From Neophaeotheca triangularis (lineage: Eukaryota), in contig BAAIJX010000003.1 of NCBI GenBank assembly GCA_054600435.1, positions 62,001-126,000 on the forward strand: a DNA stretch of 64,000 nucleotides. The letters are read 5' to 3'. Positions within the stretch are counted from its first letter, which is position 1; the number at the start of each line of letters is the position of its first letter. A program made the position numbers and the translations under genes. Under the pieces are notes generated by a model, which was not told the DNA's origin, did no database searches, and saw only the letters and a list, made by a program, of their open reading frames with translations. Of this stretch, positions 1,349 to 33,373 are shown piece after piece.

Positions 1349-2999
1349 TTACACGTCACAAACCCCATCCACACTCTCAACACCCACCTCCCGCTCCACC
1401 TCGCCATCAACTCCAAACCTCAACATCCTCCCACTCTGATACGGCGGCCAACCAGCCTCCCTCGGCCCACTCTCCGGATCCCTCATAAAAGCCAAAAGCA
1501 AATCCTGCATCCTGTCGCTAACCTCATAAGCCCGTGGCGGGGACTCACCCTGGCCGTTAGTATAGTCCGGATGCGTGCCAAACAATATGGGCAAATCAGC
1601 GCCATGGAAAGCGCCCGCCCAGGGAAGGGGGGAGACATTGCTGAAATTGCCAGAGTAGAGGTAACGGTAGGTGGTTAGGCCAAGCTTCTGGCGCATCTGG
1701 GAAGCAGTGGCAGCCGGGCAGAGGAAGCCGTTCCGCGTGAAAGCATCCGCTTCGGTTTGGTTGACACCCTCGACGTCGTAGGGGATGAGCGTCGCACCTT
1801 CGTTCTCGCACGTGGAGAAGATGGTGGGGCCCTGAGAGATTTTCCCTGCGTCGTAACGGGCGCTGTAGTTTGAGAAGACCAATTCTTCGTCCGGGACTGG
1901 GCTGAATGAGATGGCGGGCTGGGTGCCGTTGTCGCCGTATTCGCCGACGAAGTCCTCGATAGTTTCCCAGTCGAGGTTGCGCATGCAGTCGATTTCTGCC
2001 GTGGCGTTGTCGGGGTGATCGCAGCCAAGGCTTTGAGCAACGAAGGTGAAGTTTGTCTGGTTGGGATCGGAGTCTGAAACGAGTAGGCCTGCTACGCCGG
2101 ATTGGGCGAAGAAGCCCGTGACGATGGGATCTTCGTAGAAAGCAAAGTTTTGGTAGTCGACGCTGCCGGCTCCTGCAGACTGGCCCCAGAGAGTGATGCG
2201 GGAAGCTAGAACGATGAATTAGCGATCGATGCACCGCAAATGAGTAAGAACATCAGATAGGACTCACCATCACCGCCAAAAGCTTCGATGTGATCTCTGA
2301 CCCACTCTAGCGCCAGGCGTTGATCCATTAATCCCAGGTTCTGCTGTTCGAGAGCCGCAGCGTTGGGAAAACCAAAGATGTTCAGTCGGTAGCTGTACTT
2401 CGAGTCAGTCAAAGCTTCATTTCAGACATAAAACAGTCTCTGCCATACTTGATCGTAACCACGATATGCTCCTGACTCCGCTGAACCCAATTGTAGGGAA
2501 GCTGATAATTTATCTCTACGCCTCCTCCATTAAAACCTCCGCCCGTCATGTACATGACTACCGGCAACTTCTCTCCATTCATCGGGGCCCAGATGCTCAG
2601 AGCAAGGCAGTCCTCGGAAATGGGTCCTCCGATGCCGTACCCCTTAGTCGCATCATTGAAGAACGAGGGGATCTCAGTCAGGTATTGTGGACACGATGGA
2701 GGGTATTGCGTAGCGTCGTAGACCTGGCTGGCATTTCCTTCGAACTTCTGAGGGGGCAGCCAACGGTTTTCGCCAGTCGGGGGCGCAGCAAAGGGGACAC
2801 CGTGGAATTGGCGTACGTCTGGGGTGCTACCATTGATAATGCCCCGGTAAATGCCTGACTCGGTCTCGACGATGAGAGGATTATCGCAGTTGCTTTGATG
2901 CCCCCTGTGCGGCGGCCGCTGATGGTAGTGTTCGTCGGATCCTCCGGCAGTGGCGAGACTGCTGAGAGCAAGCAGGGCTATAGCCTTGTAGGAAAACAT
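1349..2999 (-). CDS. Secreted type-B carboxylesterase/lipase (alpha/beta hydrolase), at least 2 introns
   Basis: Signal peptide MFSYKAIALLALSSLATA; motifs FHGVPFAAPP, SEDCL, YRLNIFGFP, NLGLMDQRLALEWV, nucleophile elbow ITLWGQSAG (~2170-2200) and GAFHGADL. Introns near 2447-2393 and 2267-2207. Confidence 0.93.
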
Positions 3000-4513
3000 C
3001 GTGTAGGACTGACTGGCTATAGAGGAAGATGCAAAAGCTGTCGTAAGCTTGGGAAGAAGCTTCTGGGTGTCGCTTGGCCGGACATTATGGACCTTAAGTA
3101 GCTACCTGAGCATTCTGTTTACTAAGACATAGGTCCCGTGACTACCATGATTGTGGTGAAGGTGCGGTGAAGACGCTCAAGGTCGCCTAGCTGCCTCAAT
3201 GGTCCTCCCTAGGCAGGAAATATTGCGTACTCAGTAGTTACTCCGCTCGCAAGAGGCTTTTTCCCGCATTTTTCGTCCGCATTGGTGGGGTTGCGTTCTC
3301 CGCATCGAACTGGATCGAGAATTGGGAGAGTCAGGATCGGACTTGGACCAAATCATGGGCTCTGTAGTCCGCACGCTCTAGGAAGTACGGGAAAATTGCG
3401 TCATGTGTCGTTGCTTTGTAAAATGCGATGGTATTGTGGAGCAGGGAGAATGTGAGTGAGGAAGTGTCTTGGTTCAAGCACAAGTGCAGATATACCTAGC
3501 TAGGTACTTAAGGTATGTGTTGGGAGATGTCGTTGTCATTTCTGAGATGCCTAAGGCCAGAACAGGCATGCTGATCTAAGCGAGGACCTCACTCCCAGGC
3601 CGTCTCTAACTACCTCGGCTTACTTTACAGGCTCTATTGAACTTCACTCTCTCCTTTCGCTTCTTGTCAACACTGTCAAAGTCAAGTCTGAAAGCTCGTT
3701 GATAGATTGACAAAATGATACAGCAAAGAAGGAAGCTTTGGACTGATGTTCAACACGCGCCCGTCTCAGGACTCGACCGGCAAGGCCAATAGCATCAAAC
3801 TGCGCCTCAGCAGGATTCAGCCTTGCATACGCCTTCGCTTCGTAGGCCCGGGGCTTGGAAGCTATGCAAGATATGGAAATTGGGCGGCTTTTCCTGCTGC
3901 CGCTTATTCCAGTTCTAGCCTTCTGGGTTGGATATGAGGGTGTTTCTACATGATGAAGGAAAATCCGCCCAGTATCCATCGTATCCACCGACCTAAGACC
4001 TTCGAGGGTACTTCGACGAAGACAGACGAGCTACCGGAACGTCAACTTGATTTTGGGCTGCTTGCAGGACCTGACCTGGCAATCGTGACACGCTTGCAGA
4101 ATTCAGACCCCATGAGCAAAGCTCCTAGGATAGACACGTGGATAGACCAACGGTATCCTTAGGAACGACATCTTTCCGCAGCCGCTATAGATTGGCTGAT
4201 AATCAGGTCACTCAGATGCTCATAGCGCATCAGGGTCTTTCGATTCATCATTAATAATCACGGAAACGTTGGATTCGGCCGCTGAAAGATGGGAACCATA
4301 GTAATGTAATTTCGCTCTATGCTGGAAGCCCACCAAAAGATTCTCTGACACATTTCATAGATCGCACAGCCTGGAGTGTCGGTCTCCAACTCAAGTACAG
4401 ATCTTTTCTCAAACCTCGGTCAAGCTCCCTAGGCACAGTCTCCACTCTCAGATCTCAAAATCGCAGTCAACTCTCAAGTCTTTTCCCCCACGCATGACAG
4501 AGAGAAAAAAGAA

Positions 4514-5100: not shown

Positions 5101-5513
5101 TGTGCTTTGGAAGATGGTTGTATTTGGGAATAAATCGATGATTCCGTGGTGTAGGTTGGGTTCGGTGTGTTCGATGCAGAGATAAATGTTGGTTGCTGTT
5201 GGTAGTGAGGTTATGCTGTCTGTAAGAATGGGATCAAGTCGGTTTTATATTCATCTTTACAAGACATCCAACCACTCTCTTCTACTTTCGAGACCATGGT
5301 CAACATGCTATATTCGTTCATGGCACTGCGCCTTGTCGAACGTGGGTCAGGACAACGGACGTGTTTCTCCTACTAGGCACGATGGATTTAGCCAATCGAC
5401 CTACATATGGCTCGTGAGTTTTGTGATCGCTGTTGGCATACACTTGTCACCGCCACATTTGAGCTTGGCTGCGCCTTATAAATATATGTAAACATATATA
5501 GCAAAGCAATTAG

Positions 5514-5665
5514 TGTTGTAATATGTAGCGGTACGAACTCGATTGATTGATTACCAAGGACTAAACTAGGTGCTTTGCAGCAAAGCCTATAAAGACAGGT
5601 TGCGGCTTCTGCAGCTTCTACCTCAGGCATCTGTTACGTGCTACGTAGTACGGCTCATTACAACA
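5514..5665 (-). repeat. Copia 3' LTR (152 bp)
   Basis: Matches 19668-19819 with 8 differences by manual alignment, all transitions. Purine tract AGGGAGAG directly upstream on the minus strand (5666-5673). Confidence 0.96.
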
Positions 5666-5673
5666 CTCTCCCT
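5666..5673 (-). other. Copia polypurine tract
   Basis: Minus strand AGGGAGAG abuts the 3' LTR. Confidence 0.75.
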
Positions 5674-5902
5674 ACTGTCAAGCAACACGTGAATGCCCTT
5701 TTTTTTTTTAGTAGTGACTATGTGAATGCTACGTTTTGCGGCAATTGCCGCTACTACGCGCTACTATGCGTTGTTATGTAGAAGCTACTAGTGATAGGTA
5801 GAAGGTGTTTTGCTATTACTTTCAGGAAGCTCCTAAAAGAACATAGTATTATAAAAAAAGGCCTACTTCTCCTACTATAGTTCTCTAACCTTTCTTACTA
5901 CT

Positions 5903-6750
5903 ATAACCTTCTCTAATAACTAGTCTTGTCTTTACTAGTTACCTTAATACTAATAGCTTTACCTTCTACTAATACTAGCTAGTAATACTAATAACTTTAG
6001 TACTAATAGTAGTATAGCTACTATTAACTAAAGCATAATAGGTAGTATAGGTAGCTCTAGTAGTAGTAAGAAGCTACTAACTAGTACTCCCTCTAGTTAT
6101 GCTATATATGACCTAAACTAGCTAGCTACTTTAAGTAAGTTACTATAGACTAGCTATAAGAATTTCGCTAACATCTTTAGTCCTAAACTATATCTAGCTA
6201 GACCTAGCTACCCTATATAGAATTCGCCGCATTATAGTTAATCTTAGACTAGATAATGTTAAGTAAATACTACTACAATTCCATAATAATGAAGCCTAGT
6301 AGTTCTATACCTCTAATAAGTCCCTAGCCCTAAAGAATGAACTAGAAATAAGGGTAGCTAGTAAGAAATTTTACCTATCTTCTACTAAGAACACTAATTA
6401 CCTCCCTACTACTATGACCTAAGCTACTAAGGGAGGCAAAATTCATGAAGGGGATATAGCTTACACTAGATATAAGAAGGGTAATAGCCCTTAGAAGAAT
6501 TGTGTTATCTTAGAACATAAAGGAAAGAAGTTTATAAAGGGAGCCTATAGTAACTATAGCTATAGTAACTATTTTAACTAATATGACTTCTCTTATAAGT
6601 ACTACTAATATAGGCCAATTTCCGTAGGAATTCTTTACTAATATATAGGTAGCCTATTAACTAGTCCTATAAATAAAGTCTTTATAGGAAACTCTAGTGT
6701 CTTTACTAAGAAGGATAGGGTTAATAGCTAGCTCTCCCGCTCCCCTAATA
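5903..6750 (+). pseudogene. RIP-mutated intron-containing gene antisense to copia pol, encoding a DUF3716-like Cys-rich domain; both ends approximate
   Basis: Plus frame ~6396-6593 reads NYLPTTMT*ATKGGKIHEGDIAYTRYKKGNSP*KNCVILEHKGKKFIKGAYSNYSYSNYFN*YDFS. Reverting TA to TG/CA gives N..AAMAQ...CxRCxKGNGPWKNCV...GACxNC...CDF. Intron GTAAGT(6135)...GCTAAC...TTTAG(6180); probable second intron 6595-6648. Confidence 0.75.
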
Positions 6751-7183
6751 ACTAGTAGATATACTAAAGTGCTAATCCCTAATAGTATTAATTAGAGTAT
6801 ACTAGCTAGGGCTACTATATTTACTTAGGCCTTAAGGTAAAGGGTAGATATCTATAGTAGTAAGTCTACCCTTAATAGGGGAATAGGTCCTAGATCTACA
6901 CTATCTACTATAAGAGCTAGGTCTAGTAGGGAAAGCACCTTTTAGGGCTTCCTAACTTCTATAGGAAGCTCCTCTAGTTCTAGTAGTTCTTCTTCCTCTT
7001 TAAGCCTCTTAGTAAGGAAGGATAATAGCTCTAAGAGTAGTTAGAGTAATCCTAAGGATAGCTAGAAGAAATAAAATAAAGGAAAAGGGTAGTGATGTCC
7101 TATAAGGGTGTTATTTTTTAGGGGATAGTTTCCTAAGGTTTTAGTGTTTTCTAGGGTTTTTTGGGTTTTGTTTCTTAGGTTTC

Positions 7184-7406
7184 TATAAGACTAAGACTAT
7201 GACTCGGTCAGGATTACGGTATAGCGAGAGTAGAACGTAATAATGGTAATAATAGTAATAGTCCTTTAATATAGAAACTATTCGATAGTAGATAGGAGAC
7301 TTTACTATTAGCTATCTCATATACTTTCGTAGTATGTATACTTAGTACTCCTAAGCTACTCTATAGCTTAGACTACTAATATCCTACTAGCGCTATAGTC
7401 GTGACA
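7184..7406 (-). repeat. Gypsy 3' LTR (223 bp)
   Basis: Aligns to 14741-14963 at identical length; minus strand begins TGTCACGAC. Purine tract GAGAGGGAGG at 7411-7420. Confidence 0.95.
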
Positions 7407-7410
7407 ATTA

Positions 7411-7420
7411 CCTCCCTCTC
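7411..7420 (-). other. Gypsy polypurine tract
   Basis: Minus strand GAGAGGGAGG, 4 nt upstream of the 3' LTR. Confidence 0.8.
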
Positions 7421-8119
7421 TAGTAGCTCGTCCTCGAGCTAGTACTTATAAGTACTATTCTTAAGACCCTAGTATAGTATATATATTAGTACCCTCGTTA
7501 AAAACCTCGGTAGTATCTTTACTAAGGAAAAGAGTAATACTATATACTACTATTATACCGTTAGGTTCCTAGAGTATATTTACCCTAAACCTGAGTTCGC
7601 TATAGCGAGGTACGTTATCGTCGCGATAAGTAGTATTAATAGCTATATAGTAGTAATCTAGTAGAGTAGTAATTACTAGTAGAGCCTTAGTATAATTACG
7701 CTATAATTACGTAGAGGTAGTCTACTAGCTACTTCTCTTTCGAAGACTTCCTCCTTCTAACCATAACAATAATAGTCTCTACTCCGTCGTAGTCCCTTTA
7801 GTATACTAGTCTACCTTTTAATAGGGTGACCTTCTTTATTAGTAAGTGAACTTTAGTTCTTTATATATATACTACTATTAGTCTATATACGGTTCCTATT
7901 ATTCTTCGATAATGAAACTAACCTTATCTAGTTTCCTATTATTACCTACTTCTAGTAACCTTTCGAAAACCTCACTTAGCGTAGTTTAATAAAAAGGCGC
8001 TCCTCGTACCTCTAATACCTTCTCCCCTTCTTTATTAACCACTTTTTTCGCGATCTTACTATCGCCTTTTTTTTCGCTAGCTTTATTTACTACCTTCATT
8101 ACTCTACTACTATTCTATT

Positions 8120-9478
8120 ATGTCTCTACATATTAGTAAGCGTATAAAGGTACTAGTCGACTATAGCGTTAGCGCTATAGCTATTAATAGTAAGGGTACC
8201 TTTACTATAGATAGGGCGATTATCGCTAAGGGAGTCTTTATGACTAAGGGCTACTATTAGATCGACACTAGTAACTTTATAGAAGAGGAGTTAAAGGATC
8301 TAGTCGATAAGTCGAAGTCTACTAAGAAGGGTTTAAAGTTAGAGAGTATTAGTACGAAGCGCACTATAGCTACTAAGGGTATAGGCTTGAAACGTAAGTA
8401 TACTATAGATAATAATAGGGAGGAGAGTAGTTCTAAGGAAGATATACTAGTGTTCTATTACCTCGCTAACATCGATAAGGATGTAGAGCTTAATCCTCCT
8501 AACATTAATCGCTCTTATTATTCGTATTATATTAAGGAGCTCTTAAGTAATATTCTTACTAGATCTATCGACTTCATCCTACTATACTAGATAGTGTCTT
8601 CTATAACTAGATCAGTATATAACATCTATTAGGATATAAAGTAGTCCTACCTCGAGGTAAGCCTACTATTACTCTATTATCATTATGAGTTCTCGCTAAT
8701 ATCTTTTTAGATCATTCCTAACCTCGCGAGCTAGTATAGCTACTATGTCTAGATGAACTATACTACTATACTCTATCGTGCTAATCATACTAGTAGTAGT
8801 AGCGCTAGTTCGCTAATATACCTTAAGGTCTTAGAAGTTAATGCTAAGGTCTCCTAGTACTTCTATAAGAATAACCGCGCTGTCATCCTAATAGGGGGCC
8901 TTCGTCGTTCTAGTCCTAATAACGATAAGATCTTAACTCTACATAATATAGTATGCCTAATTATGGATTAAACTCGCAACTTCGCCACGATCATTACTAA
9001 TGCTATCGAGAGGCTTATCGCTATCTACTATATAGAAATGTCTATGCTTATTAACGAGATGTCTAGCTATTATTATGCCATGTCTTCTTCTTCGCCGCTA
9101 TATACGACTCCTAGTGTTAGTGTGTCGCCGCCTTATGATAAGACTATCGGTATACTAGTAGAGGCCCTTAAGGTACTAATGTCGACATCTAGAGCTCTAG
9201 TTCGGAGGAGTAGTAGGGACGATACTAGTATGCTACTAGAGATGTCTTCTAATAAGGATTCTTCTTCTTTATTAGAGTCGGATTAGGAGGACGAGGCTCC
9301 TATAGTACTAGTAGTAATTCCTAGGTATATAACGGAGGTTAAGGGTTTGTTTTAGATAAGTAGTAGGAACGATGACGCTCTATCGGTAGTAGAGAATGTA
9401 GGGGGGTCTATTAGTGCTAAAGATTAGCTATAGGCTAATATTGCTAAGGTTTTAAAGGAGTTAGACACTAGGGCTTAA
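8120..9478 (+). pseudogene. RIP-mutated intron-containing accessory gene (~435 codons) antisense to gypsy pol, with putative six-Cys motif
   Basis: ATG 8120 and track ORFs 8387..8590 and 9038..9286 share one frame, with about 12 internal stops by manual count, all TAG/TAA. 54-nt intron GTAAGC(8657)...GCTAAT...TTTTTAG(8710). Confidence 0.7.
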
Positions 9479-9559
9479 GCGTTTATTTAATCATTTACAT
9501 ACTCTCTATAAGCGCCGTTGTCCTATCGCTAGTCTATCTATAGTAGCTATTAATTAAGA

Positions 9560-12500
9560 AGCTTATATACTATGTCCTTTTCCTATAGTTTTCTTCTTTT
9601 TTCCTAGCTATATATTCTTAACATTCTTTTTCTTTAGGCTTTATGTTTTCTTTCTATGCTTCTTTTTCGCGCTACTATAGGTCTACTAGTGTTACTCGAA
9701 GTCTATAATTACTTCTTTCGCATTATTTAGATGCTTCTCTTTCTCCTAGGTTCTCTCTTCTATTAGCTAATCTCTCTAAAGAACATAGTATGTCTTATTA
9801 CTATTATTATCGAGACTAGATACTGTTATTTCATCGATAACCTATTTATCGCCTCTATCGACTTCTCGCTCTACTAGTAGTACGAAGTCAGTATATTAGT
9901 AGTATAGTTCGAGGAGGGAGATGTAGAAGATATTATAGATCTTTCCGAGGTATAGAGGTAGGGCTAATTAGTATACTTGTTTTCTAACCCTTATTATGAT
10001 TTAGAAGGGCCCTACATAATGTGAGGAGTACTTTTTTGTTAGTCTTAATGTTTTCAGGTTTTTCGCGGAAATAAGAACCTTATTATCGACACTAAATACT
10101 ATAGGATCATGTTTTCGGTTATAGTATTCTGCCTACTTACTAATAGTATACTAAATGTTGTCCTTAATAGCTTCGCGAATTGCTTTCTAGTTTTCAGTTC
10201 TTTCTTAGAGGTTAGGGATTGTCAGTTCGCTACCTCCCTCTCTAATAGCATTATCCATAATACTACTAGGCTGTTAGGGCTCTACTCTATAGATAGTAAA
10301 GAATAGCGACACTTTAGTTAATATACTTATACTATTATTATAGGCAAATTCGGCCTATACGAGGTAATAAGGCTAATCTGTCTATATAAAGTTAACAAAA
10401 TATCATAGATACTATTCTATTATCTAGTTTTGCCTCTCTATCTACCTATCGGACTAAGGGTAGTATGCTGTCGATAACTTACGCTTAGTTTTCTAATACC
10501 GAAAGAGCTCTATCTAAAATGTAGAAGTGAATATACTACCTCTATTAGTTATAATTGAATTTAGCTTACTAAACTTAGTAAGAATTTCATGCTCGAAAAT
10601 ATTAGCTAGTTAGTAGGTCCCTATTACTTCGCTAATAGGGATATACCTCGTGAACTTTAAGAAGCGGTTAACAATAATTAATATAGAATTAACTATTTTA
10701 CCCTTATATGTCTCTATAATAGACAACTTAACTACTATATCTATAGACTAATACTTAAAGATCTTATTAGCACTTAGAACCCTTAGCGATTATAATACGC
10801 TATAGGGCTAGTAATAGCGCGATTTATGTCTTTAGTAGGTATTATACCTAAGGACATACTCTTCGACATCCTTAGTCTACTTAGACCACTAAAACTCCTT
10901 ATAGAAGATAGCTTTAGTCTTCCCTACTCCTAGATATCTTACTAATAGGTCCTTATAGTAGTAGCTTAGTATAGCGGTCTATAGGCTTTCTACTAGTAGT
11001 ATATATACCTTTCTATTAATCTTAAGAAGTCCTATAAAACTAACTAACTATATAGGTATAGCGCTATTAGTATCTCTATAGTACTATCTCTTATCGATCT
11101 CTTTACGAATACATTTAGTAAAGGGATCTCCCTACTATATATGTAACATATCCGCTCTAAGGTTAATTCAGTCTACTACTATGTTAGGCTCTCTAATGTC
11201 TAGCTCGGTAATAGCGAGTATACCTAGCTACTTACCTATAGGGTCATAATAGGTTAGTACTACTATAGTGATAGAGCTAGTCAGGTTTAGTTTACCTCCC
11301 CCTTAGAGCTTTCGCTTAGTGTACATAGTATCATTACTCTAAAGCTTATTATTTAGAGGACTAGTGTCTCTAGTAGCTATTATGTAGCCTACTAGTAAGG
11401 CGGCTAATGTCTAGTAGTTTACTAGCGCTATATACCCTAGCGATATAGATAGGATCTCTACTCTATCTTCGGTAGCTATTATGTAGCTACTCGCTAGAAC
11501 TTTAGTAGCCTTATAGGGGCCTACTAGGGGAGCGAAAAGCCTAGTTAATATAGATAGTATTTCCGCCCTACTTAGTTCTCTATTAGCCTCTATATTAGGA
11601 TAGCGCGAGAGCCTATCTACTCTAGGGTTTAATTTACCTTTATAGTATGTGATCTCGATGTTATATTGCGATAGCTCTTCTATAGCGCGCGCTTAGTAGC
11701 CTAACAATTTCTTTATCGATAGGAAGTATTTCAGATTGTTATAATCTATAAGTACCTAAACTTTACTCTTAGCTAACAATATGTAATACTACTATTAGCA
11801 TATTACCTTAATAATGGTAAGTAGTTCCTAATCATATACTAGATATCGTAACTCTAGCCCTTTAAGCTTCTTAGAGTAGTATACGACCGGATACTATAGT
11901 ATGTCCGAGTGCTTCTATATAAGTATACCTCCTAATACATATCCTAATATATCGGTCTTAAGGTAGGTCTCTAGCATAGCATTAAAGTGCTGTAGTACTA
12001 GTACTGAAATGAAGCTATACTTTAACCTTTTAAAGGATTTTTAGGTATCTTTACCTAGTAGCTACCATTTACTACCGCTATACTATAGGTAGTCTATAAG
12101 GGGAGCGGTAATCTTTACATATCCCTTAATAAAGCGATAATAGAAATTCGCGAATCCTAGGAATACTTAGAGTTCTTTTAAGGACTTTAGTATTAGCTAA
12201 TCCTAAACTATAGCTACCTATAGGGGCTCTATCGCTACTCTAGTAGAGTTAATAATAAAACTAAGGAATCTAATCTCTTAGACTATAAACTCGCATTTCT
12301 TGAGACTAGTATATAGCTTAGCATTAGCGAGCTAACGGTAGACTACTCGAACATGTTCGCGGTATTCTACTTCAGTATAGGAATAGATAAGAACGTTATC
12401 TATATATACTACATAGTAGTAGTTAACTAGCTCTATAAGTATCTTATTAATAAAGGCCTAAAATGACGCTAGTATGTTAGCGAGTCTAAAAGGTATGACC

Positions 12501-14692
12501 TTATATTAGAAATAGCTATACTAATAGTAGAACGCTATCTTCTACTCATCGCCCCGGGCGATACGTAAACAGTAGTATACTTCGACTAAGTCGATTTTCG
12601 AAAACTATGTTGATCTATAGACTCTATCTAAGAGTTTACTAATAAGCGGTAAAGGATACTTGTTCTTAATAGTGATTTCGTTTAAGCCTTAGTAATCGAC
12701 ATATATATAGAGTTTACTGTTTTTCTTCTTAACAAATAGTAATAGTATACTAGTAGGGCTAGTACTAGGCTTAATACGGTCTATCGCGAGTAGGTTATTA
12801 ATCTATAACTACATTTCCTCGAGCTCGGGCTTAGAACATAGGTAGATTAGTCTACTAGGAGGATTCTTCCCCTCGACTAGTTCGACATAGTAGTTATGAA
12901 GTATATATAGAGGTAACTCTTTCGCCTTCTCCGATTTAAACACCTTAGTATACTCTACTAACTACTTAGGTACCTATAGCTCTACTAGGGTCCTATATAG
13001 ATCTTCTATACTAATAGCGAGGATAGATGCTCTACTATTAATATTTTAGGCTAGTTCTTTGGCCTCGATAATTTCGACTTCTTCTTTATTATACATACTA
13101 CTATAGCGCTACTATACTAGTAGCGACGCGAAATCGAGCTATGCTTTTATAGATTAGATCTAAGGCATTCTAAGAATCATTTCATGATCCTTCTAGTTCA
13201 CTACTTCGAACATTTATAGAATGGTCTGAACTATACTGTCTAAATTAGCGACTTTAGTATAGAGTCGACATCAGCCTACTATTAGGGCTTTAATATCGCT
13301 AAAGGCTTATAGCTTACGAATCTAGTCACCCTTTATTAGTAGGTTATACTAGACTACGATGTCTTCTAAGATGACATTATAATGCGCTCTTATATCGATA
13401 AGCCTATAGGCCTTAAAGCGTAATCTGTCGTGGGTTCGATCGTATATCTTTATAACAGCCTATAGGCGCTCTATTAACATACTACCTACTTATCGCCCTA
13501 AGCCTTTAAGGCTAATAATTGAATGACCTAGGGCTAAGCTTTTCCCTTTTAGCAATTTTCTTACTAGTAGCCTTTACTACTATACTTAAAACAAAGGTTT
13601 TCTTTAAGGGCTCTATTGTTTCGTTCGCTACTATTAGTCGAACCTATATAGTTCATACTAGTCGCTAGTGTCCTATTAGTACGCTAGTAGCGCAGTTTAG
13701 AGTTGTTATCGCTTATACTCTAGTTTTGTTCTCTTTTCTTATAGCTAGAACCTCTTAAGTCGGTCTTATGTAGCTTGTCTACTATCTCGCCTCTAGCGTC
13801 CTAGCTACTATAGCTAGTATCGTCGAGACGTATATAAAGCGCGATAAGGTTATACTAGTTATCTAGTACTATTAGCTAGACATTTAGCTTAGTCTTAAGG
13901 TTTTCCTATAGACTAGTCTTAATAAGGGTAAGGAGTATATACTCTAGTAGTAGGGTAATGTTAGCCTTATAGAGGGAGTCTTCGACATATAAGAGGTAGT
14001 CGTGAATAGATTAGGTCGCTCCCTAAATATGTCTAAAACCTCGGAATGCTATGTTTATAGTATGGTTTTTAGGATTGAGGATCTAATCTAGTAGCCATTC
14101 TTTAAACATAGGCTATTTCATCTCTTCACGTTCGAGTCATAACTCTTTACTCTCCTAGTTCTAGCTAATATAGCTATATAGGTAGCCTATAGTATACTAG
14201 ACACACTCGTACTAATAAAAGTAAATATAAGGGTATGTCTTAAATACACGCTCATATTACTAGATAAATATCTATACTTTTAGGAGGTTAGGGTAACTCC
14301 TATAAGCCGCTAGTTTGGCTAAGCGAAAAGCTTTCTCGATATCGATATGAGACTTTCGCTCCTTTATCGTTATACTAGTAAGTAGATCTTCGTCTACTAT
14401 CTACTTATATGCTACTAGGGTAGGGGTAATGTCTACTAGGTCCTCTAGTTCGATATGTCCTCTTTTAGACTCGTTATAGGGGACCGTCGCTCTATTAGTA
14501 GCTCGCTAAATAGACGCTATACGCTCTACTAATTGTTATTAGAGTTCCGTAATAATAGTAGTAAGGACCGTGTATTAGTCTATAGCTACCTCTTCTTGTT
14601 CTTATAGGGTGTTAACTCTAGTAATAGTGTTAGGGGAGTCCGCTAGGTTAGCGTTGTCGACCTATAGGTATAGCGAGCGCGATAGTACTATA
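9560..14692 (-). pseudogene. Gypsy gag-pol (RIP-degraded) with C-terminal chromodomain; ends approximate
   Basis: Gag knuckle LCFKYSSKGY**ENC (~13555-13600, =CxxCxxxxHxxxxC) followed by slippery GGGAAAA. RT YYVVYIDNVLIYS (~12385-12420). Integrase IIVNRFLKFTRYIP and KRKLSTAYYP*SDR*IER*N (~10430-10680). GPF motif ~10010. Chromodomain *VIDEI...YYVL*RD*LIEERT*EKEKHL (~9720-9845). Confidence 0.93.
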
Positions 14693-14740
14693 ATGTCTAA
14701 GCGAATCTTAACCTAAGAAGGTTCTAAGATCGAATAGAAT

Positions 14741-14963
14741 TATAAGACTAAGACTATAACTTAGTTAGGATTATGGCGTAGTAAGGGTAGAACGTAATAA
14801 TAGTAATAATAGTAATAGTCCTTTAATATAGAAACTATTTAATAGTAGACAGGAGACTTCACTATTAGCTATCTCATATACTTTCATAGTATATATACTT
14901 AGTACTCCCGAGCTACTCTATAGCTTAGGCTGCCGATATCCTACTAGCGCCGCGGTCGTGACA
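14741..14963 (-). repeat. Gypsy 5' LTR (223 bp)
   Basis: Pairs with 7184-7406; followed on the minus strand by the primer-site region and gag. Confidence 0.95.
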
Positions 14964-15126
14964 GTTTCTTAGTTAGTATAAAGGGAATACTACATAGTAT
15001 AGTGGGTTTCTCCTAGGATGGTTTTCTAGAGTTAGTATTTTCTTAGGGTAATTTTATAGAGTTTAGAAATAAAGGGAAAATGCTACATCCTATAAGGGTG
15101 TATTGCTCTCTAAGAGTAGGATGATC

Positions 15127-18100
15127 TTAAATCATCTAGTTAGGGGACTTTAGCTTAGTTAGACTATCTACTAGCTACTTAGTAGTATTAATGTATTTAA
15201 CACTAATAACCCCCTTCTCAAGCTACTCCTTATAGTAATAGTTTCTAAGGGATATGTGCTTTAACCGCTTTAAGTTAGTATAGTCTTCTATAAGTAGAAT
15301 AGCTAACTTATTATTAACATGAACTTTAATAGTTTTTAAGCTGAATTCTATTAAAGGCTAAAGTTTAAGGAAAAGATTCTATATCTAGTTAATTTCCCTT
15401 ATAGTCTCTATTAATATAACGTACTCTACCTTAGTACTTAATAGAACAACTTCCTTCTATCTCTAAGATCTCTAGACTATAGGTATACTATTTATAAAAA
15501 TAGCTAAGCTAGATATTAATCTAGATATAGCTAGATTACCTATAAAATCTAAGTCTAAGTAGGCCTTAATAGAAATCCCTTCCTATCTCTTATAGATAAG
15601 CCCTCTATCTATAGTGTCTATAACATATCTCTAGATATATGTTATAGCTATAACATGCTCCTTAGATAGGTTTTAAAGGAACTTTACTAAGTAGTTAACT
15701 ATATGAGACATGTCTAGCCTTATCTAGTTTACTAGGAATTATAGTTCCCTAATTATCTTATTAAAGATATGATAAACCTACTAAGTACATTACTTCTTAG
15801 AAGGTTTATATAGGTAGTTAAGTAGGTACTTAATTGTCCTTACTTAGTCTAGATTATGTCCTTTAAGTTTATTAAGGGTATAATACTTCTAGGATAGCTT
15901 AATAGTATTCCTACTCTCCTTAATATATAGGCTTAGGAAAAGGTTAGTGTCTATCTCCTTAATACTATACTTCTTCTTTATCCCTATAATGAGCTACTTA
16001 ATCTTCTTAAGTTTAGGGCTAAAGATCTAGAAGTTATCTACATGTATTAAAACTAGTACATTGTTACTAGTAAAAAGATATGTATTAGACTTTATCTACT
16101 TTAGTCCTATTAACTTAAGATAGGATATAGTATCTTAGAACTAGAGGTAAGCTATCTACTTAAGACTATATAAGCCCTTATTAATCTTTATAAGCTTACC
16201 CTTCTTATCTTTAAGAATGAGTTTAAGTCCTCCTAGTACCTAGATAAAGATCTGTCTATCTAGATCAGGATTTAAGAATGCTATCTCTATATTAATCTAG
16301 GTTCTACTTTATTTAAGCTAGAATGTAATAGCTAGGAGGATCCTTCCTATTCCTAGCCTTAGTGTTAGTATAAAGGTATTAACATAGTTAGTACCTTATT
16401 TCTATAAGAATCCCCTTATTATCTATCTAGCCTTATATTTATTAATAGAGCTATCTAGGAGAAGCTTTAGCTTAAATACCTACTTCCCTATAAGTGCTCT
16501 TCTACTAGGTAGTAGCTCTAATTACTTAATCTAAGTAATTGTACTAGTAGACTTAAGGCTTTTAATCTCCTTAATTATTATAGCCTTCTACTAGCTTATA
16601 TCCTTTCTACTAAATATATCGTGATAGTCCTTAGGATTATTAGTAGCCTAGGTTATAGCTCTTATATATAACTACCTATAATTCGACGATTTTATAGGCC
16701 TACCTACCCTTATATATATTAAGGGCTAAGGGGATAGTGATCTCTTCCTCTTACTAGTAGTTAGCTAAGGGAAGAATAGTGTTATTAAGGTATCTCCCTA
16801 ATCTTCCTCTATTAGGTTAATAGAGGGCTACTATTACTCTCTCTAGTCTATAGGGGAGACTTCTTAGTACTCTCCCTATTCTATAGAAGAGGCTTCTTAT
16901 TATTACTCTCCCTATTCTATAGGAGAGGCTTAATGTTATTACTCTCCCTTAGGAGAGACTTATTAGTAATCTCCCTTAGGAGAAGATTAGTACTCTCCCT
17001 ACTCTTTAGAGGAGACTTACTAGTATTAGTACTCTCCCTTAGGAGAGGCTTATTAATATTAGTACTCTCCCTTAGGAGAGGCTTATTATTATTACTACTC
17101 TCCCTTAGGAGAGGCTTATTGTTATTACTACTCCTATTATAGGCTATTAAAGTTCTCCTAAAGCCCTAGGATATAAAGGGCTAACTACTCTCCCTAAACT
17201 ATAGGAATCTAAATAGGCCTAAAGTAAGTATCCTTATTAAAGGTTATATATAGGCTTTAAACAATACTAAATAGGTCCTATCTAATTAGTAATATTAGGA
17301 GGTAGTTAGTAGTAGAGTTGTCTTAGAAGCCTATAAACTAGTAGATAGTAGCTCTTAGGGTAAACTTTTCTAATGTAATCCTATTCTAGTTATGTAGGAA
17401 TGCTTTATAGCTAAATCTCCTAAGGTTAGAGAGGTTAATGGTCTAGTCCTTAGATACCTCTAAATCCTCCTTAAGGTATTATAGGGGGATCTTCTTAATC
17501 CTAAGGTTATAGACTATATTAGTAATATAGATTATATAGTTTATAGCTAGGAGCTAGAGATCTCTAGGAATACTAAAGTTAATCATTATTACCCTAGCCT
17601 TAGCTAGGATGGTTTTATTAGATAACTCTATAATACTATTCTATTTAGGAGTCTTTAGACTTAAGATGTCCTATCTCATCCCTATCTACTATACTATAGT
17701 AATTAAATTATAGTTGATAAACTCCCTACTACTATTAGAGAACTATATCTTTAGTATCTTATTATAGGTATTTATAGTTCTTACTATAAAATTCCTAATG
17801 AGTAATAGTACCTCACTTTTATTTCCTATAAAGAGAGGCTACCTAAACCTGGTTTTAGAATCTATTAGGAAGATAATATACCTTAGACTAGTACTAGAGG
17901 TTAGTGTGATAGGGCTAACTATGTTAACATGTATCTTATCTAGAGCTTAACTAGTCCTTACTCTTAAGGTTCTTAAGACAATCCTTTAAGACTTTAAGAG
18001 TTTATAGACATTATAGTAGCCTAGAGCTATAGTGTTTACTACTTCAAGTCTAGTTATGTGTTATTTAGTAGCATTAAGAATATTACTACTAATGTGGCCT

Positions 18101-19575
18101 AGTCTTTAGTACTATCTAGTTATATCTATCCTTAGCGCTAATACTACTAGTACTACTAGTAATCTTAGTATAGCTATTACTATTAATAGTAGGCTTTATT
18201 ACTAAGGTAGTAGGAGGATTTTAACATTTTATATAACATCTACCTTATGAACTTACTTCACTATTCTAATAGTGCTTTTATTAGACCTTAGCTTATTAGT
18301 ATATCTATCTAGAGCAATCCTATACTTCTAGTATAGTGTGTCTACATAAATTAAGTTAGTAGAGGATCTTAAGGAGTATAGGACGTTCTTTAGGGTAATA
18401 CTAAAGATCTTGTTATTATGTTTAAGGGAAAGCTTAACTATCCCTAAATAGGTAATAGAGGCCTATCTAATAGTCTAGCTAAAGGTAATTAGCTTCCTAA
18501 GGGGCTTAATATCCTAAAAATGCTTAAGCTTATTAAAGAAAGAGAAGGATAATCTAGAGTTTAAGATAATAGTAATTTCTAGTACTATAGCTTATAGTAC
18601 TATAGGGAGAGATAGAGTAACACTTAACATACCTCCTAAAGATAAGGATAAGATTAACTTAGCGTTACTATTATCACTATTATTAATAGCTGTAGTAGCT
18701 TTTCTCCCCTTCTTCTTAGTAGACTTAGTATTCCTATTCTTCCTTATATCTTTCTTCTTTCTCCCCTCCTACTTATCCTTATTACTATCTTTACCTTTCT
18801 TATATTATTTAGGTACCTACTTTAGGTACTACTTAAAGCATTTAGTATTAGTGTGTTAGTAGTGATTATATTAGGTATAGATATTACCTTTTACTACCCC
18901 TATAAACCCCTATATCCTTCTCTATTACTAAGATAGGGGAGGTAGGGCCTTAGACCTAAGACTAGTAATTATATCCTCTAAGCATTTCCTACTCTAAAGG
19001 AGGTTATTATGTCTCTAAGTCCTAAGCTACTCTATATTAAGAGTACCCCCTTTAAAGAGAATCTTAATGTAGTTATCTAGGAGACTAATACTAGCTATAT
19101 TTGTCTAGTTCCTTAGAGTAACCTACTAGTCTATAGCTCTCTTAAAGGTCTAGTAAGCTACTATAAACTCTTAGTAATACTTTAGGGTATTTATTCCTTA
19201 TAGCTTAATGCTATAGAGGTTAGAGATAGCCTTATAGAGAGTAATTATAACATTAGGCCTATAGATAGATTTGATATACTTAAATAGCTTATAGGCTGTC
19301 TTATGTGATATATTATAGTTAGGTCTATATTCGTCTAATAGCCTTTCTATAATAATACTATATATAAGTATATCTTTCTTATAGAACTTAACTATAGTAT
19401 CCCTTATAGATAATACTAGTTAGACTACCTTTAGTAGCTATTTAAGGTCATGAAACATATAGTTAAGATAGTCCTTATTAAGTAGCTTACTCTTTAGGAT
19501 AGCCTCTTAGATACTAAAGATTATGTTCTTTTTAAGGATCTTATTGTCCTTAGCTCCCTTATTATTTGTGTCTAT
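15127..19575 (-). pseudogene. Copia gag-pol polyprotein (RIP-degraded); ends approximate
   Basis: Knuckle YT*YNHY*HTNTKC (~18840-18880). Pre-integrase *Y*RLGHIS (=WHQRLGH, ~18090-18115). Integrase LDKIHVNIVSP (~17915-17945). RT INIEIAFLN, GLYSLK*, LIHVDNF (~16030-16295). RNase H LSTKVEY, KRLKHI, *LVDSLTK (~15150-15445). Confidence 0.93.
16830..17135. repeat. Tandem repeat (~9 units of ~24-39 nt, core ACTCTCCCTTAGGAGAGGCTT) in the copia INT-RT linker
   Basis: Repeat visible directly. It reads NNNKPLLRES-like in the pol frame and produces the spurious ORF 16933..17142. Confidence 0.85.
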
Positions 19576-19650
19576 TTTGTTTAACTAGGGATAGTTATCC
19601 TAGGAATTGTTCGTAATTAGCTAGTTTTATGCTCGCTTATGTAGATTGAT

Positions 19651-19667
19651 GCGCTAGGCTCATAACC
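19651..19667 (-). other. Copia primer-binding site complementary to the anticodon arm of initiator tRNA-Met
   Basis: Minus strand GGTTATGAGCCTAGCGC directly follows the 5' LTR. Plus strand GCGCTAGGCTCATAACC resembles the tRNAiMet anticodon stem-loop with its CAT anticodon. Confidence 0.85.
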
Positions 19668-19819
19668 TGTTGTAATATGTAGCGGCACGAACTCGATTGA
19701 TTGATTACTAAGGACTAAACTAGGTGCTTTGCAGCAAAGCCTGTAAAGACAGGTTGCGGCTTCTGCAGCTTCTGCCTCAGGCATCCGTCACGTGCTGCGC
19801 AGTACGGCTCATTACAACA
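19668..19819 (-). repeat. Copia 5' LTR (152 bp)
   Basis: Pairs with 5514-5665; flanked by the ATTAG target-site duplication at 19820-19824. Confidence 0.96.
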
Positions 19820-20594
19820 ATTAGAAGGATCGTGAGAGATTTACTCCCGTAGGCCCTCCGACCCATGATCACCGAGGTCGTGCTTGATTCATAGCTCAGT
19901 GGTTACTAATTATAACTTATATGTAGCTGCACCGCCGCCTGCTCCATACGATGGATTTTGGCCGAATCTAACGACACGATTGAGAACAGGCGACCATTGG
20001 ATTATGGCATAGTCCAGCTCAATCTCAAACTGTCGAATGCCACAAACTAAACTCATCAGCTGTGCGCTAGTGTCTGCATTCCAAGACACGACAGCAAATT
20101 CTTACGAGTCTAGCTATCCTTCCTCACATATAATAGCTAGCAAAAGCAGATTCCATCACGACAGACCCGCAAACTTCAGACTCATCTGGTCGTGGCACCC
20201 CACGCCTGCTACCGAGTTCAGCAGCAGTAATCGCCTCAAAGCTAGAGAAATGCTGTGGATGATACGCCCATACCAATGATGAGGGACGTGGAGTTTAGAG
20301 CTGGGCAAGATAGACAGATACCATCGGTTCGAGGCCAGGATGAAGCTGTTGGATAGGGACATTCATCGCTCGCTCCAAGGGTACTATTATAAGCGAGAGT
20401 TTCCCGTCCCTATACCTGTCTCCTTTCATCCAATCGAACGAATGCTTCGCCGTATGCTCATGAGTCCAACCCGGAAACCAAGCACTCTCATCCCAAAATC
20501 CCCTTTTTCGAACCCACTGAACCAGCACTCACGTCCCTGCCCCCACCGAATCATCCCCCGCCATGGAAACCCAACTAGACAAACTGGAGGAATC

Positions 20595-21936
20595 CTACTC
20601 CCCCACGCCAGCACCAGCAGCCGCGCCTCCCTCTCCCGCCGCCGCAACAGAAACTCTAGCCTTCTTAGCACTCCCGCCCTCTTTTCCCCCATTACCACCA
20701 CTGTCAACCTCGCTCCCCCTCTTCCTCTTCCCCTTGCCACCACTGCCCCCACTCTTCCCCCCTTTAGCCCTATAAGTGCCATCAGGATCCTTCCCCTTCT
20801 TCTTACCCAAAAGGGGCGGTGGCGCAAAACCCACCTCCCCACCAGCATCACCACCCACACCTCCATCCTCCTCATCGACCACCCCCCCACCGGGGCTCAT
20901 ACCCTCTCTCGCCCTGGCGTGCTCTACAGCACGATCCCCAACCTGTTTAGCGAGATCGCTCTTATCCTTCTTCTGACGTTTCTTAGGCGGGGGCTTGGAA
21001 GCAGAAGTCGGAGTTTCGGAGTCGGCGGCCACGTCGTCGTGGGGATCGAGTGGGATGGTTGCGTGGGCGTTTTGATGCGGTTTGGCATGTGTGCGGAGCC
21101 AGTTGTGTTGGGAGTGGGGGTTGAGCATTTCGGCTTGACGGTCAAATTCGCGGGATGTGAGTTCGGTGGGGTTGGGAATATGGGTTGAGTGGGTGGGGGA
21201 GGGATGTGTAGTAGTGTTGGTTGTGGTCGTGAAGCTGTAGGGGTCGCCTAGGCGCGCGTCGAGCTGGGCTAGGTGATCGCGTTCTTGGTCTGGGGTTAGG
21301 AAACCAGGGAGAAGGTCGCCTGTGAGATCCGGAGGTAGGTCGGTGGGGTCTGTGGAGGGTATTGTGTGTGGGATGGTGGTTTCGAGGTGTTGTAGGGTAG
21401 GGACGTCTTGGGCTGCTAGGCGTTGATCGATGCTTTCGCGGATGATGTGAAGATCTAGAGGGGGGAGACGGCCTTGCTGAACTGCTGCGGTGTATTCGTC
21501 TAGCATGTCGTTGGCCTGTTCTGGTGTGATGTCGACGGGAACGCGATTGTTTGCGGAATGGCGGGGAAGGGAGATGTCGAAGCGGAGGTCTGGCGGGATG
21601 GAAGGGTTTTGGTTGAGTTCAAGGCAAATGTCAAGGATGCCACTGCAATTACGCATTAGTATGGCATACAAATGGTAGTGGTGAGGTTCATGCATACTCC
21701 AACTCTTGCCGCAACCTCTTCGCTGTAGCTTCCAGCTTCTGTTCCTCCCTAAACATGCGCCGGTTCTCCTCCAAGACGCCGTCGAAGTGGATGCGCATTT
21801 TGCGATACTTTTTGCGCCATGACTTGTAACGTGGTTTGTCGCCGCTACCTGTGATTGCTGCCAGACTGGCCAGTGACTTTCCGCCGTAGGGATTGTGATG
21901 ATGAGACGGGCCCGCAGTACCCTCGGAGTCGGACAT
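20595..21936 (-). CDS. IEC3: INO80 chromatin-remodelling complex subunit Iec3-like; intron 21697-21643
   Basis: N-terminal KPRYKSWRKKYRKMRIHFD...LEATAKRLRQEL, later NPHSQHNWLR and DPDGTYRAKGG. Intron GTATGC...CTAAT...GCAG joins ORF 21688..21936 to ORF 20595..22193. Confidence 0.88.
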
Positions 21937-22281
21937 GGTGGGGGATAGTCGGTCGCGGTAGTGAAGGCTATAAACCGATATTGTTCAATTGGTCGTGTTT
22001 GTTGGTGGTGTGGGATGAAGTGCGATGAGGTGAAGTCAAGCAGAGACGGACGAAAGAGGAAGGCAAGTCGCGCTGTCGCAGGCCGGGATATCTCTTGGCG
22101 AGTGTAGCTGGCCCAAGCTTTAACAGATGAGTATCCGATTGGTTGAGCCAAAACTTCCCGAGTCCAAGTTCGAGAGCTCTGGGAAATTTCCAAATCGCTT
22201 CACATGCTTCTTCTACTAAAGATACACGCATAACAGCAAACTCTTCACCCTCGGCTGGATACCTCAGGTTCACCAGCAACC

Positions 22282-31934: not shown

Positions 31935-32786
31935 TTTTGATAAGTAGTAGCTTTGGCGGTCGCGTTCTCAAGTCGCGCTTGGTAGGGAGGCTTTTTGAGC
32001 AGCTTCGAATCCAAGCCCACTATTCGAATCCAAGCTCACTATCTTACAAGGTCTAGCGAGGTGTAGTCCAGCAGAGTCATACAAATTCACAGCTGCCAGA
32101 CGACTCCTCCGAAGCAAGCCACAAAAAGGCTTTATAGACGGGTATCTGACATGCGTAGCGAACACCGTCAGCTCGAAAATGGAAACAGAAAAACACACCC
32201 GTTCTGATGAACAACTTGGCCAGTCTTATGATTACTATTATACTCATCTAAACTAGCCATCATCATCATCATGCTAGCGTCGGCTAGTGCGCCGCTCAAT
32301 CTATCAGAAAAAGGAATCAAGGTCTGTCTTCGGGGGGTCGAGTGACGCAGAAGTCAATCCGATCCTCTGGTGTTGGGTGTGGGGACTCCAATGCTGTCCC
32401 AAGGTTTGATTGCTGCTGAGAAACCTCAAAACAGTAAAAGTTACTTGACCTCGATAAACGCGGGGCCCCTTGAGGTTGATTGTGACCGGCTGACCTGGAG
32501 TTGGACTTTAGACTTGAACCTACCAGCTTCGAGCGGGTTCGGAGGGTGTTGAGAGGATCGCGTAGACGCTGACTGGTAACTACCGTCTGTCTCCTGTCGT
32601 GTAACTCCCAAGTCCGCAAACTAGACTTTCGTAATTATTATATCTTTACCATCTCGAGAGAGAGAGAACGGACCGCGGGCTCTCGAGAGCTAGCCGTACT
32701 TCCAGGCGAACGGGTCCATAAGCGTGGAGTAACTTTGACAGATGGTTGGCCACTTTTCTTCTTCTCAGCCCGAGCTTCGCTCACAC

Positions 32787-32870
32787 ACTACTATTACTAC
32801 TACTACTACTATTACTACTACTACTACTATTACTACTACTACTACTATTACTACTACTACTACTGCTACT
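32787..32870. repeat. (ACT)n microsatellite with an 18-bp higher-order unit (ACT)5ATT
   Basis: Seen directly; intergenic. Confidence 0.95.
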
Positions 32871-33373
32871 TACTGCAACTACCTCCTACACCTTAATCAA
32901 CGCTCAAGCGCCGAATACAATATTGCTCCTAGCTTTAATTCTTTTTCAGTGTCATGTTCGACTCGATAGAATTTGTTGTTAGGCCTCTTTCTTCTTACAT
33001 AGAAGTCGAGGTCTGATCGCCAAGGTAATTGGGAATAATATCACCGAACATCGCTTATCTTTGACACAAGCGAGCCAAGCGAGCCAAACTTCGAAGCCGT
33101 TCCGCGCCGAGGCGGGCGATAGGAGGGTCGGTCGAGGTTTGACGGCTTGAGCGTCTTCCTTGTACGTTCTCTTGCTGCAGTTTTACTAATCAAATGTCTG
33201 TCGTGTATCGTTGAAAGTTCGAACAGATGTTACTCAACAGCCATGGTGTGTGCGGGATATTGTTCGCTACGTACACGGTCGTAAGTCATTCAAGCTCAGC
33301 ATTTACTTTCCATTCGCCAGCCGCATATCTGTGCCCTTCCAACAGTATATCATCCCTCCACGTCACACTCTCT

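Follow-up and report, generated by a model that had tools for sequence, protein, structure and literature searches.

Do long terminal repeat (LTR) retrotransposons of fungi carry genes of their own on the strand opposite gag-pol, and could two unrelated superfamilies have acquired such genes independently? The question is raised by a 64,000-nt stretch of the Neophaeotheca triangularis genome (contig BAAIJX010000003.1 of GenBank assembly GCA_054600435.1, positions 62,001 to 126,000 of the forward strand), here called the window and numbered from its first base, in which a Ty3/gypsy element lies within a Ty1/copia element. An initial annotation held that both elements run on the minus strand and that each has, after pol, a plus-strand gene that converges on pol, has short spliceosomal introns and encodes a six-cysteine pattern. 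Our analysis supports a narrower answer. We consider it quite likely that the locus is a nested pair killed by repeat-induced point mutation (RIP), in which the gypsy family carried an antisense accessory gene between pol and the purine tract, left as a relic at 8120-9286. The proposed counterpart in the copia element is doubtful.

The gypsy interval lies between the end of pol, near 9690, and the purine tract at 7410-7422. Its open reading frames (ORFs) have two intact relatives in protein collections, P0130 and P0131, and with their help it can be divided as follows:

7423-8119, plus strand: stretch upstream of the antisense ORF, stop-dense in all frames and without a Pfam match; the putative site of a promoter and 5' untranslated region
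8120-8590, plus strand: relic of antisense ORF-A, with an ATG start and one RIP-made internal stop (8258); matches P0130
8591-8947, plus strand: middle stretch, with six stops in 119 codons of the same frame and no relative found; holds an intron-like motif at 8657-8710
8948-9286, plus strand: relic of antisense ORF-B, with one RIP-made internal stop at 8969, where P0131 has Gln, and a terminal stop at 9284 common to both copies; matches P0131

Over the 388 codons of 8120-9283, this plus-strand frame is interrupted by 9 stops, and each of the other five frames by 29-65. Counted per 300 nt over 8101-9300, the frame (codons starting at positions 2 mod 3) has 1, 3, 5, and 1 stops and the other frames 6-21, while the true pol frames of the same AT-rich block have 2-9. 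The frame contains a stop-free run of 100 codons; of 500 dinucleotide-preserving shuffles of 7410-9700, 4 produced a run as long. Within ORF-A, purines make up 71% of first codon positions and 38% of third positions.

An exhaustive phmmer search of 1.84 billion cluster representatives, using the antisense frame with X at its stops, returned exactly two matches. P0130, of 156 amino acids, is 69% identical to query residues 2-155 (E = 1e-59; 9e-72 when aligned on the window), and its residue 1 falls on the ATG at 8120. P0131, of 112 amino acids, is 71% identical to query residues 280-388 (E = 1e-33; 1e-38 on the window). A separate word-based search, limited to shorter proteins, recovered this same pair and nothing further. 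Each is a singleton that comes from assembled public reads and lies on a contig of 4151 nt, probably the same contig for both. Both are free of stops and rich in Arg, Pro, Ala, and Gly at positions occupied in the window by Tyr or a stop, Ser or Leu, Thr or Val, and Ser or Asp. As many as 74 of the 80 residue differences can be explained by C>T or G>A mutation of the window codon, compared with about 15-16% for random residues; the remaining six are the same transitions, mutated in the other copy. Because 74 of the 80 differences take this form, the window copy is a RIP-mutated sister of a nearly intact copy.

P0130 is basic (pI 9.9, with 31 Lys plus Arg and a KRKR run), and P0131 is acidic and Ser-rich (pI 5.4, 22 Ser). 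They are not similar to each other, and neither resembles any other part of the window; nor was a second copy of the antisense region found elsewhere in the window. Searches of viral contigs and prokaryote genome contigs returned nothing. A candidate among metagenome contigs, aligning over 52 Lys/Glu-rich residues at 45% with no retroelement nearby (L001), was rejected as spurious. In the Protein Atlas, P0131 had no usable match, and the best matches of P0130 were to unnamed Ascomycota clusters at 0.88, below the 0.9 level; one of these clusters carries Myb_DNA-bind_8 on 40% of its members, which serves as a lead only. The Gln and Trp content of the two proteins, far below that of an average protein, makes them almost immune to RIP-made stops.

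Since the pol frame is the in-phase complement of the open frame, an extension of pol on the sense strand had to be excluded. Leucine codons distinguish the two strands: TTA, TTG, CTA, and CTG make up 156 of 228 Leu codons in the true RIP-damaged coding frames of the block and 20 of 27 in the plus frame of both ORF stretches, but only 2 of 34 in the in-phase minus frame (binomial probability 4e-14 at the pol rate). The gene caller applied to the intact contig likewise picked the ORFs equivalent to the plus strand. From Leu codon usage, this choice, and the coincidence of the ATG at 8120 with the start of P0130, we conclude that the coding strand was the plus strand, antisense to gag-pol. The coding region thus lies between the pol end and the purine tract on the strand opposite gag-pol, and its end at 9286 faces the end of pol. 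The initial annotation had pointed out that such a gene might prove to be a fragment of a separate DNA transposon with its own termini; around 7380-9950 we found no credible inverted or direct terminal repeats, only short low-complexity matches. We regard the gypsy antisense region as a genuine former coding region, and the initial observation as a whole as partly confirmed. Of the two convergent plus-strand genes that had been proposed, the gypsy one is thereby upheld by stops, relatives, and Leu usage, while for the copia one the open frames are at chance level, as described below.

The setting of this relic is a block of altered base composition. GC content is about 0.5-0.6 across the window, as in ordinary fungal-type DNA, apart from a block at about 5.5-19.8 kb in which it is 0.30-0.37. 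The usual thresholds for RIP are a TA/AT ratio above 0.89 and a (CA+TG)/(AC+GT) ratio below 1.03. In 1-kb segments of 6001-19000 these indices are 1.65-2.25 and 0.15-0.40, and the flanks mostly have TA/AT below 1, the second index above 1, and GC above 0.5. The block bears the signature of RIP, an assignment based on the dinucleotide indices, the low GC content, and transition-only changes between duplicated copies. It resembles the RIP-degraded nested LTR elements found in AT-rich blocks of ascomycetes in its GC content of about 0.33, TA/AT of about 2, depletion of CA and TG, transition-only LTR differences, and stops arising from Gln, Trp, and Arg codons; we see no difference from that class, and this is the ordinary part of the locus.

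Within the block, a 7780-nt gypsy element is inserted in a copia element of about 6.5 kb. LTR pairs were identified by a repeat search and self-BLAST followed by alignment of the ends, and a six-frame reading of 5700-19799, with stops as X, was searched against Pfam and gave matches on the minus strand only. Both elements are complete insertions on the minus strand, as the Pfam domains, LTR pairs, and target-site duplications (TSDs) bear out; the orientation had been recognized earlier, the nesting had not. The gypsy element landed in the post-pol region of the copia element, where it is flanked by a GTTTC duplication. Their parts, including the reverse transcriptase (RT), are:

5514-19819, minus strand: copia element, whole, defined by its LTR pair and TSD
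5509-5513 and 19820-19824: copia TSD, ATTAG, the same five bases at both ends
5514-5665, minus strand: copia 3' LTR, 152 nt, TGTTG...CAACA; partner 5' LTR at 19668-19819
5666-5680, minus strand: copia purine tract, from direct reading, ...AGTAGGGAGAG on the minus strand adjoining the LTR; the GGGAGAG tract abuts the 3' LTR
5681-7178, resuming at 14969 past the gypsy element and running to about 15100: copia post-pol region, with candidate frames only
15100-19500, minus strand: copia gag-pol, with RVT_2 at 16509-15850 and the end of RNase H near 15139-15100
7184-14963, minus strand: gypsy element, whole, defined by its LTR pair and TSD
7179-7183 and 14964-14968: gypsy TSD, GTTTC, perfect, flanking both ends
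7184-7406, minus strand: gypsy 3' LTR, 223 nt; partner 5' LTR at 14741-14963
7410-7422, minus strand: gypsy purine tract, AGAGAGGGAGGT on the minus strand
9685-13090, minus strand: gypsy pol, from Pfam and aligned relatives
13090-12251, minus strand: gypsy protease and RT, within pol
12052-11663, minus strand: gypsy RNase H, within pol
10987-10817, minus strand: gypsy integrase, within pol
10081-9902, minus strand: gypsy SH3_Tf2-1, within pol
to about 9700, minus strand: gypsy chromodomain-like tail, within pol

The outer element belongs to Ty1/copia by its RVT_2 domain (Pfam E = 3e-19, about 16509-15850, minus strand) with integrase upstream of RT, its paired LTRs, and its target duplication. 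Its LTRs are 95% identical, and all eight differences between them are transitions. The coding frame matches distant copia polyproteins, the best of which, P0121, aligns through residues 463-668 at 17955-17314 and residues 805-1302 at 16635-15139. Because the alignment runs nearly to the last residue of P0121 (1302 of 1314, at 15139), we place the end of copia pol near 15100, which leaves about 130 nt to the point of gypsy insertion. The copia interval from pol to the purine tract therefore spans about 1.63 kb (15100-14969, then 7178-5681).

The inner element belongs to Ty3/gypsy by its order of RT, RNase H, and integrase followed by an SH3-like tail, along with its LTRs, purine tract, and 5-bp TSD. 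Its Pfam matches span 12730-9902 on the minus strand, in the order RVT_1 (E = 5e-13), RT_RNaseH_2, RT_RNaseH, Integrase_H2C2 (E = 0.001, below the cut-off), and SH3_Tf2-1, and its pol is 28-40% identical to polyproteins of fungal and other chromoviruses. All ten pol relatives align collinearly down to 9806-9908, with 45-255 residues beyond; the alignment of P0015, one of the ten, continues beyond the SH3 domain as far as 9806. Most of the listed relatives carry a chromodomain. Pfam did not call this domain (PF00385) in the RIP-damaged frame, which by eye looks chromodomain-like beyond SH3, with Trp codons turned to stops. The frame then meets clustered stops at 9694-9685, which puts the end of pol at about 9690 and leaves about 2.26 kb before the purine tract. 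The earlier observation that each element has room after pol is thus borne out. The gypsy LTRs differ at 27 of their 223 bases, and all 27 differences are transitions. Both elements were mutated after insertion, and the pair is RIP-inactivated and dead.

Whether the gypsy relic represents one gene or two, and whether it was spliced, depends on the roughly 360 nt between ORF-A and ORF-B, a stretch (query residues 156-279) for which neither protein search found a relative. Stops in the shared frame are denser there (6 in 119 codons, against 1 in 156 for ORF-A and 1 in 112 for ORF-B), and even so neither of the other plus frames is as open there as the antisense frame. The stretch includes a well-formed, intron-like motif of 54 nt at 8657-8710, in frame, with the elements GTAAGC...GCTAAT...TTTTTAG. 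Motifs of this kind are common by chance in TA-rich RIP DNA. For example, of nine donor sites with a following branch point and AG in 8100-9480, seven fall within segments that the intact copy reads as uninterrupted ORFs. Splicing of the gypsy antisense gene is possible, with 8657-8710 as the candidate intron. The corresponding copia motif, at 6599-6627, measures 29 nt, which we judge too short for a fungal intron. The short spliceosomal introns ascribed to both genes are not supported by these results.

The cysteines fare no better. In the true gypsy frame there is a single Cys codon across 7410-9478, at 8954, and it is RIP-made, with Arg in its place in P0131; P0130 has one Cys and P0131 none. 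The other two plus frames of the region hold 12 Cys codons apiece. In the copia element, frames +0 and +1 contain one and two Cys codons. The six-Cys pattern is thus absent, and the intron said to follow directly after the last Cys in each gene (at 6595 and 8657) has no Cys codon just before either position.

In the copia post-pol region, three candidate frames can be named:

6303-6596, plus strand: candidate frame, 3 stops in 98 codons
6649-7041, plus strand: candidate frame, of which 6688-7041 has 4 stops in 118 codons
6345-7190, minus strand: the most open candidate frame, 10 stops in 282 codons, 21% Leu

At best, the plus strand has 3 stops per 100 codons; among all frames, the lowest count in a 100-codon segment is 2, a value reached in 41 of 500 shuffles (p of about 0.08). 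Pfam gave no accepted match for the three frames (region 5681-7178); a Bet_v_1 hit on 6303-6596, with E = 0.031 and 14.6 bits against a cut-off of 22.4, was judged to be chance. Terminal repeats around the region amount to short low-complexity matches. Counting TGA stops alone gives no discrimination here. Two observations favor a gene. The interval has a three-base purine periodicity above that of all 500 shuffles, and its phase steps by +2, +0, and +1 in the plus direction, as expected of a chain of exons. In addition, the plus frame of 6688-7041 contains 4 stops in its 118 codons against 12 in its in-phase minus frame. The periodicity measure is strand-blind, however, misses the true copia pol (its value is reached in 150 of 500 shuffles), and peaks in a TAG/CTA-rich low-complexity stretch, so that its support is weak. 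Open frames alone can also mislead in RIP DNA, because within copia pol (15150-18900) an off-phase antisense frame has 88 stops and is more open than the true frame, with 114. We consider a plus-strand gene in the copia post-pol region rather unlikely. Of the architecture said to be common to the two superfamilies, the long post-pol region is present in both; the cysteines are absent, and matching antisense genes with introns are not established.

Several readings of the locus have to be weighed against one another. Had copia and gypsy each independently acquired a spliced antisense gene after pol, as a recurrent fungal strategy, one might expect the unusually long intervals between pol and purine tract that both elements have, the stepping periodicity and strand asymmetry of the copia interval, and a motif as well formed as the one in the gap between the gypsy ORFs. 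We nevertheless hold this to be unlikely: copia stop depletion is within chance, the most open copia frame is on the minus strand, the periodicity fails on a known coding region, no Cys motif occurs in either element, and most donor motifs fall inside intact ORFs. The reverse doubt is that even the gypsy relic is no gene, that P0130 and P0131 are chance or shadow ORFs produced by automatic gene calling and the open frame of the window a by-product of composition. Orphan proteins that are poorly recognized and fold with low confidence would fit this, as would the openness of the off-phase antisense frame in copia pol; and there are just two RIP-made stops in 268 codons because P0130 and P0131 are nearly without Gln and Trp, so that RIP could hardly create stops in them. 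Chance would, however, have to supply two ORFs, 156 and 112 codons long, in a single frame, a conserved start ATG, the purine bias of ORF-A by codon position, and Leu usage like that of true coding frames on the plus strand only, while leaving the other five frames far from open, and we find this improbable. Nor does it seem at all probable that the 2.2 kb or so after gypsy pol is foreign, whether as a transduced host gene or a piece of some other transposon. The number of known copies, just two, is what such an insert might predict, but there is no host homologue among the 1.84 billion representatives, no terminal repeat or target duplication of its own, and no departure from the RIP level of the rest of the element; since the other copy comes from a near-identical ancestor, any insert would predate both copies.

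The reading we prefer, a RIP-killed pair with an antisense accessory gene in the gypsy family, has points against it of its own. The intact relative is known from two protein sequences alone and not from the surrounding DNA, and the protein collections hold just one further copy of the gene. A stop at 8588 is common to the window copy and P0130, with the frame closed there in both; given this shared stop, ORF-A and ORF-B may not form one gene. The stop is either original or a parallel RIP hit in the lightly mutated copy. The 268 residues of P0130 and P0131 include one Cys, one Gln, and no Trp, and this scarcity of Gln and Trp is unusual. Pfam gave no family for P0130, P0131, the middle stretch, or the two flanking stretches; a sequence search of the PDB returned for P0130 only eL19 (E = 0.14, compositional) and for P0131 nothing; language-model recognition of both proteins is below that of most real families; and an AlphaFold model of P0130 alone, with a mean pLDDT of 43, is of no value. 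Together these points weigh against the preferred reading.

If that reading holds, a Ty1/copia element would have received a Ty3/gypsy chromovirus in its long post-pol region, and the two would then have accumulated numerous C>T and G>A changes. The accessory gene, in the intact relative, would consist of two ORFs, encoding a basic protein of 156 amino acids and an acidic, Ser-rich one of 112 amino acids, and the roughly 360 nt between them may hold an intron or a spacer. In a live element the gene would have been transcribed from its own promoter, in the approximately 700 nt beside the 3' LTR, converging on pol. An intron, if present, would survive retrotransposition because it is reversed in the genomic RNA. 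Expression of the element would be modulated either by a small charged protein, perhaps nuclear, or by the antisense RNA. We infer this mechanism from the layout and from similar genes described in parts of two reports on plant elements (PMC7264820, PMC11963269). In the window the antisense gene has no present function, because the copy is dead from RIP.

The arrangement itself is not new. It had been presented as a possibly little-described class, but antisense ORFs after pol have already been reviewed for plants and reported for the fungal element Boty (sections of PMC7264820 and PMC8365987). The plant review calls antisense ORFs that lie between the end of pol and the 3' LTR 'relatively frequent' in plants, as in Grande, RIRE2, Retand, and PvRetro13, and, citing Zhao et al. 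2011, adds the Boty element of Botrytis cinerea and Sclerotinia sclerotiorum; it describes the function of such ORFs as unknown, with regulation by protein or antisense RNA proposed (PMC7264820). The roles suggested in the initial annotation, a regulator or control through antisense RNA, agree with these proposals. In PMC11963269, all 63 Retand cluster representatives have at least one antisense ORF, and the region from pol to LTR holds 104 antisense ORFs, 57 of them with a TRP28 domain. PMC8365987 draws brtn on BcGypsy1, where the current genome annotation misses it, and mentions more additional ORFs on other families; a Boty-like element that combines gag-pol, a chromodomain, and brtn appears in PMC4227169. 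A term search of the survey 'LTR Retrotransposons in Fungi' (PMC3248453) did not find the word antisense, and in open-access text we found no antisense ORF described in a fungal copia element. The antisense post-pol layout is thus already known, and the gypsy relic adds a dead example of it.

Among the closest known systems, as described in these sources, is Boty with brtn: a fungal Ty3/gypsy element with a chromodomain pol and an antisense gene between pol and the 3' LTR, the gene being an orphan missed by annotation (PMC8365987). The comparison is by description; the exhaustive search with the window frame gave no protein beyond P0130 and P0131, and the window gypsy differs in its 223-nt LTR and in being a copy dead from RIP. 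The plant antisense ORFs called aORF-3R (Grande gene23 of maize, RIRE2 of rice, Retand of Silene, PvRetro13 of Phaseolus) share the same position and orientation, a long region from pol to the 3' LTR, and mostly orphan proteins; some of these plant products are nuclear proteins or predicted DNA binders, and Grande possesses a promoter of its own. They differ in belonging mostly to non-chromovirus lineages, with regions of 3-6.5 kb, in the PF04195 (TRP28) domain of the Retand ORFs, where the window gypsy gene has no Pfam domain, and in their conservation across many copies and species, where the window gene has one relative.

HTLV-1 offers an analogy only: it has a minus-strand gene near the 3' LTR, converging on pol and env, with a regulatory role in that virus. 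The antisense gene of this deltaretrovirus is HBZ, and it is spliced. HTLV-1 differs in being a vertebrate retrovirus whose product is a bZIP protein, with which P0130 and P0131 are linked by neither sequence nor domains. Both plant reports (PMC7264820, PMC11963269) refer to HTLV antisense genes and to a 3' LTR promoter in antisense orientation.

Other features of the window deserve mention. The retrotransposon nest is intergenic: its host flanks are a carboxylesterase split into exons (1349-3101, minus strand) and an INO80 Iec3-like gene (20595-22199, minus strand). The 152-nt copia LTRs are much less mutated than the copia interior, with 8 differences and a local GC content of 0.38-0.46 (the gypsy LTRs have 27 differences), as would be expected if short repeats escape RIP. 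The copia element also holds, at 16832-17134 between its integrase and its RT, a tandem array of about eight units of 33-36 nt, which reads in the pol frame as a repeated ...SPKGE... peptide with stops; one plus frame has a single stop over 16801-17100. Tandem arrays are common in the long internal regions of plant elements, according to an excerpt of PMC11963269. A second, small RIP-like patch at 32500-33000 (TA/AT 2.0-3.1, GC down to 0.38) stands amid normal DNA; it weakly matches copia 18138-18204 (75% over 68 nt) and may be a short transposon remnant.

For the biology of these elements, the locus has several implications. The Cys motif and the copia counterpart should not be taken as facts. 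Stop density and Leu codon usage recover the original coding strand even in DNA wrecked by RIP. Extra antisense genes of LTR retrotransposons are known but poorly understood, and the consulted parts of PMC7264820, PMC8365987, and PMC11963269 show a function for none of them. Fungal examples are few, namely brtn in Boty and unnamed extra ORFs of other Botrytis families, and the window adds a second, unrelated-looking fungal gypsy family with an antisense gene. It is a slim prospect that both superfamilies independently gained an orphan, intron-bearing antisense gene and that these, together with brtn, mark a recurrent unannotated niche in fungal LTR retrotransposons. If this were true, introns would be shielded by their orientation, and gene products or antisense RNAs would tune the expression of the elements or host silencing.

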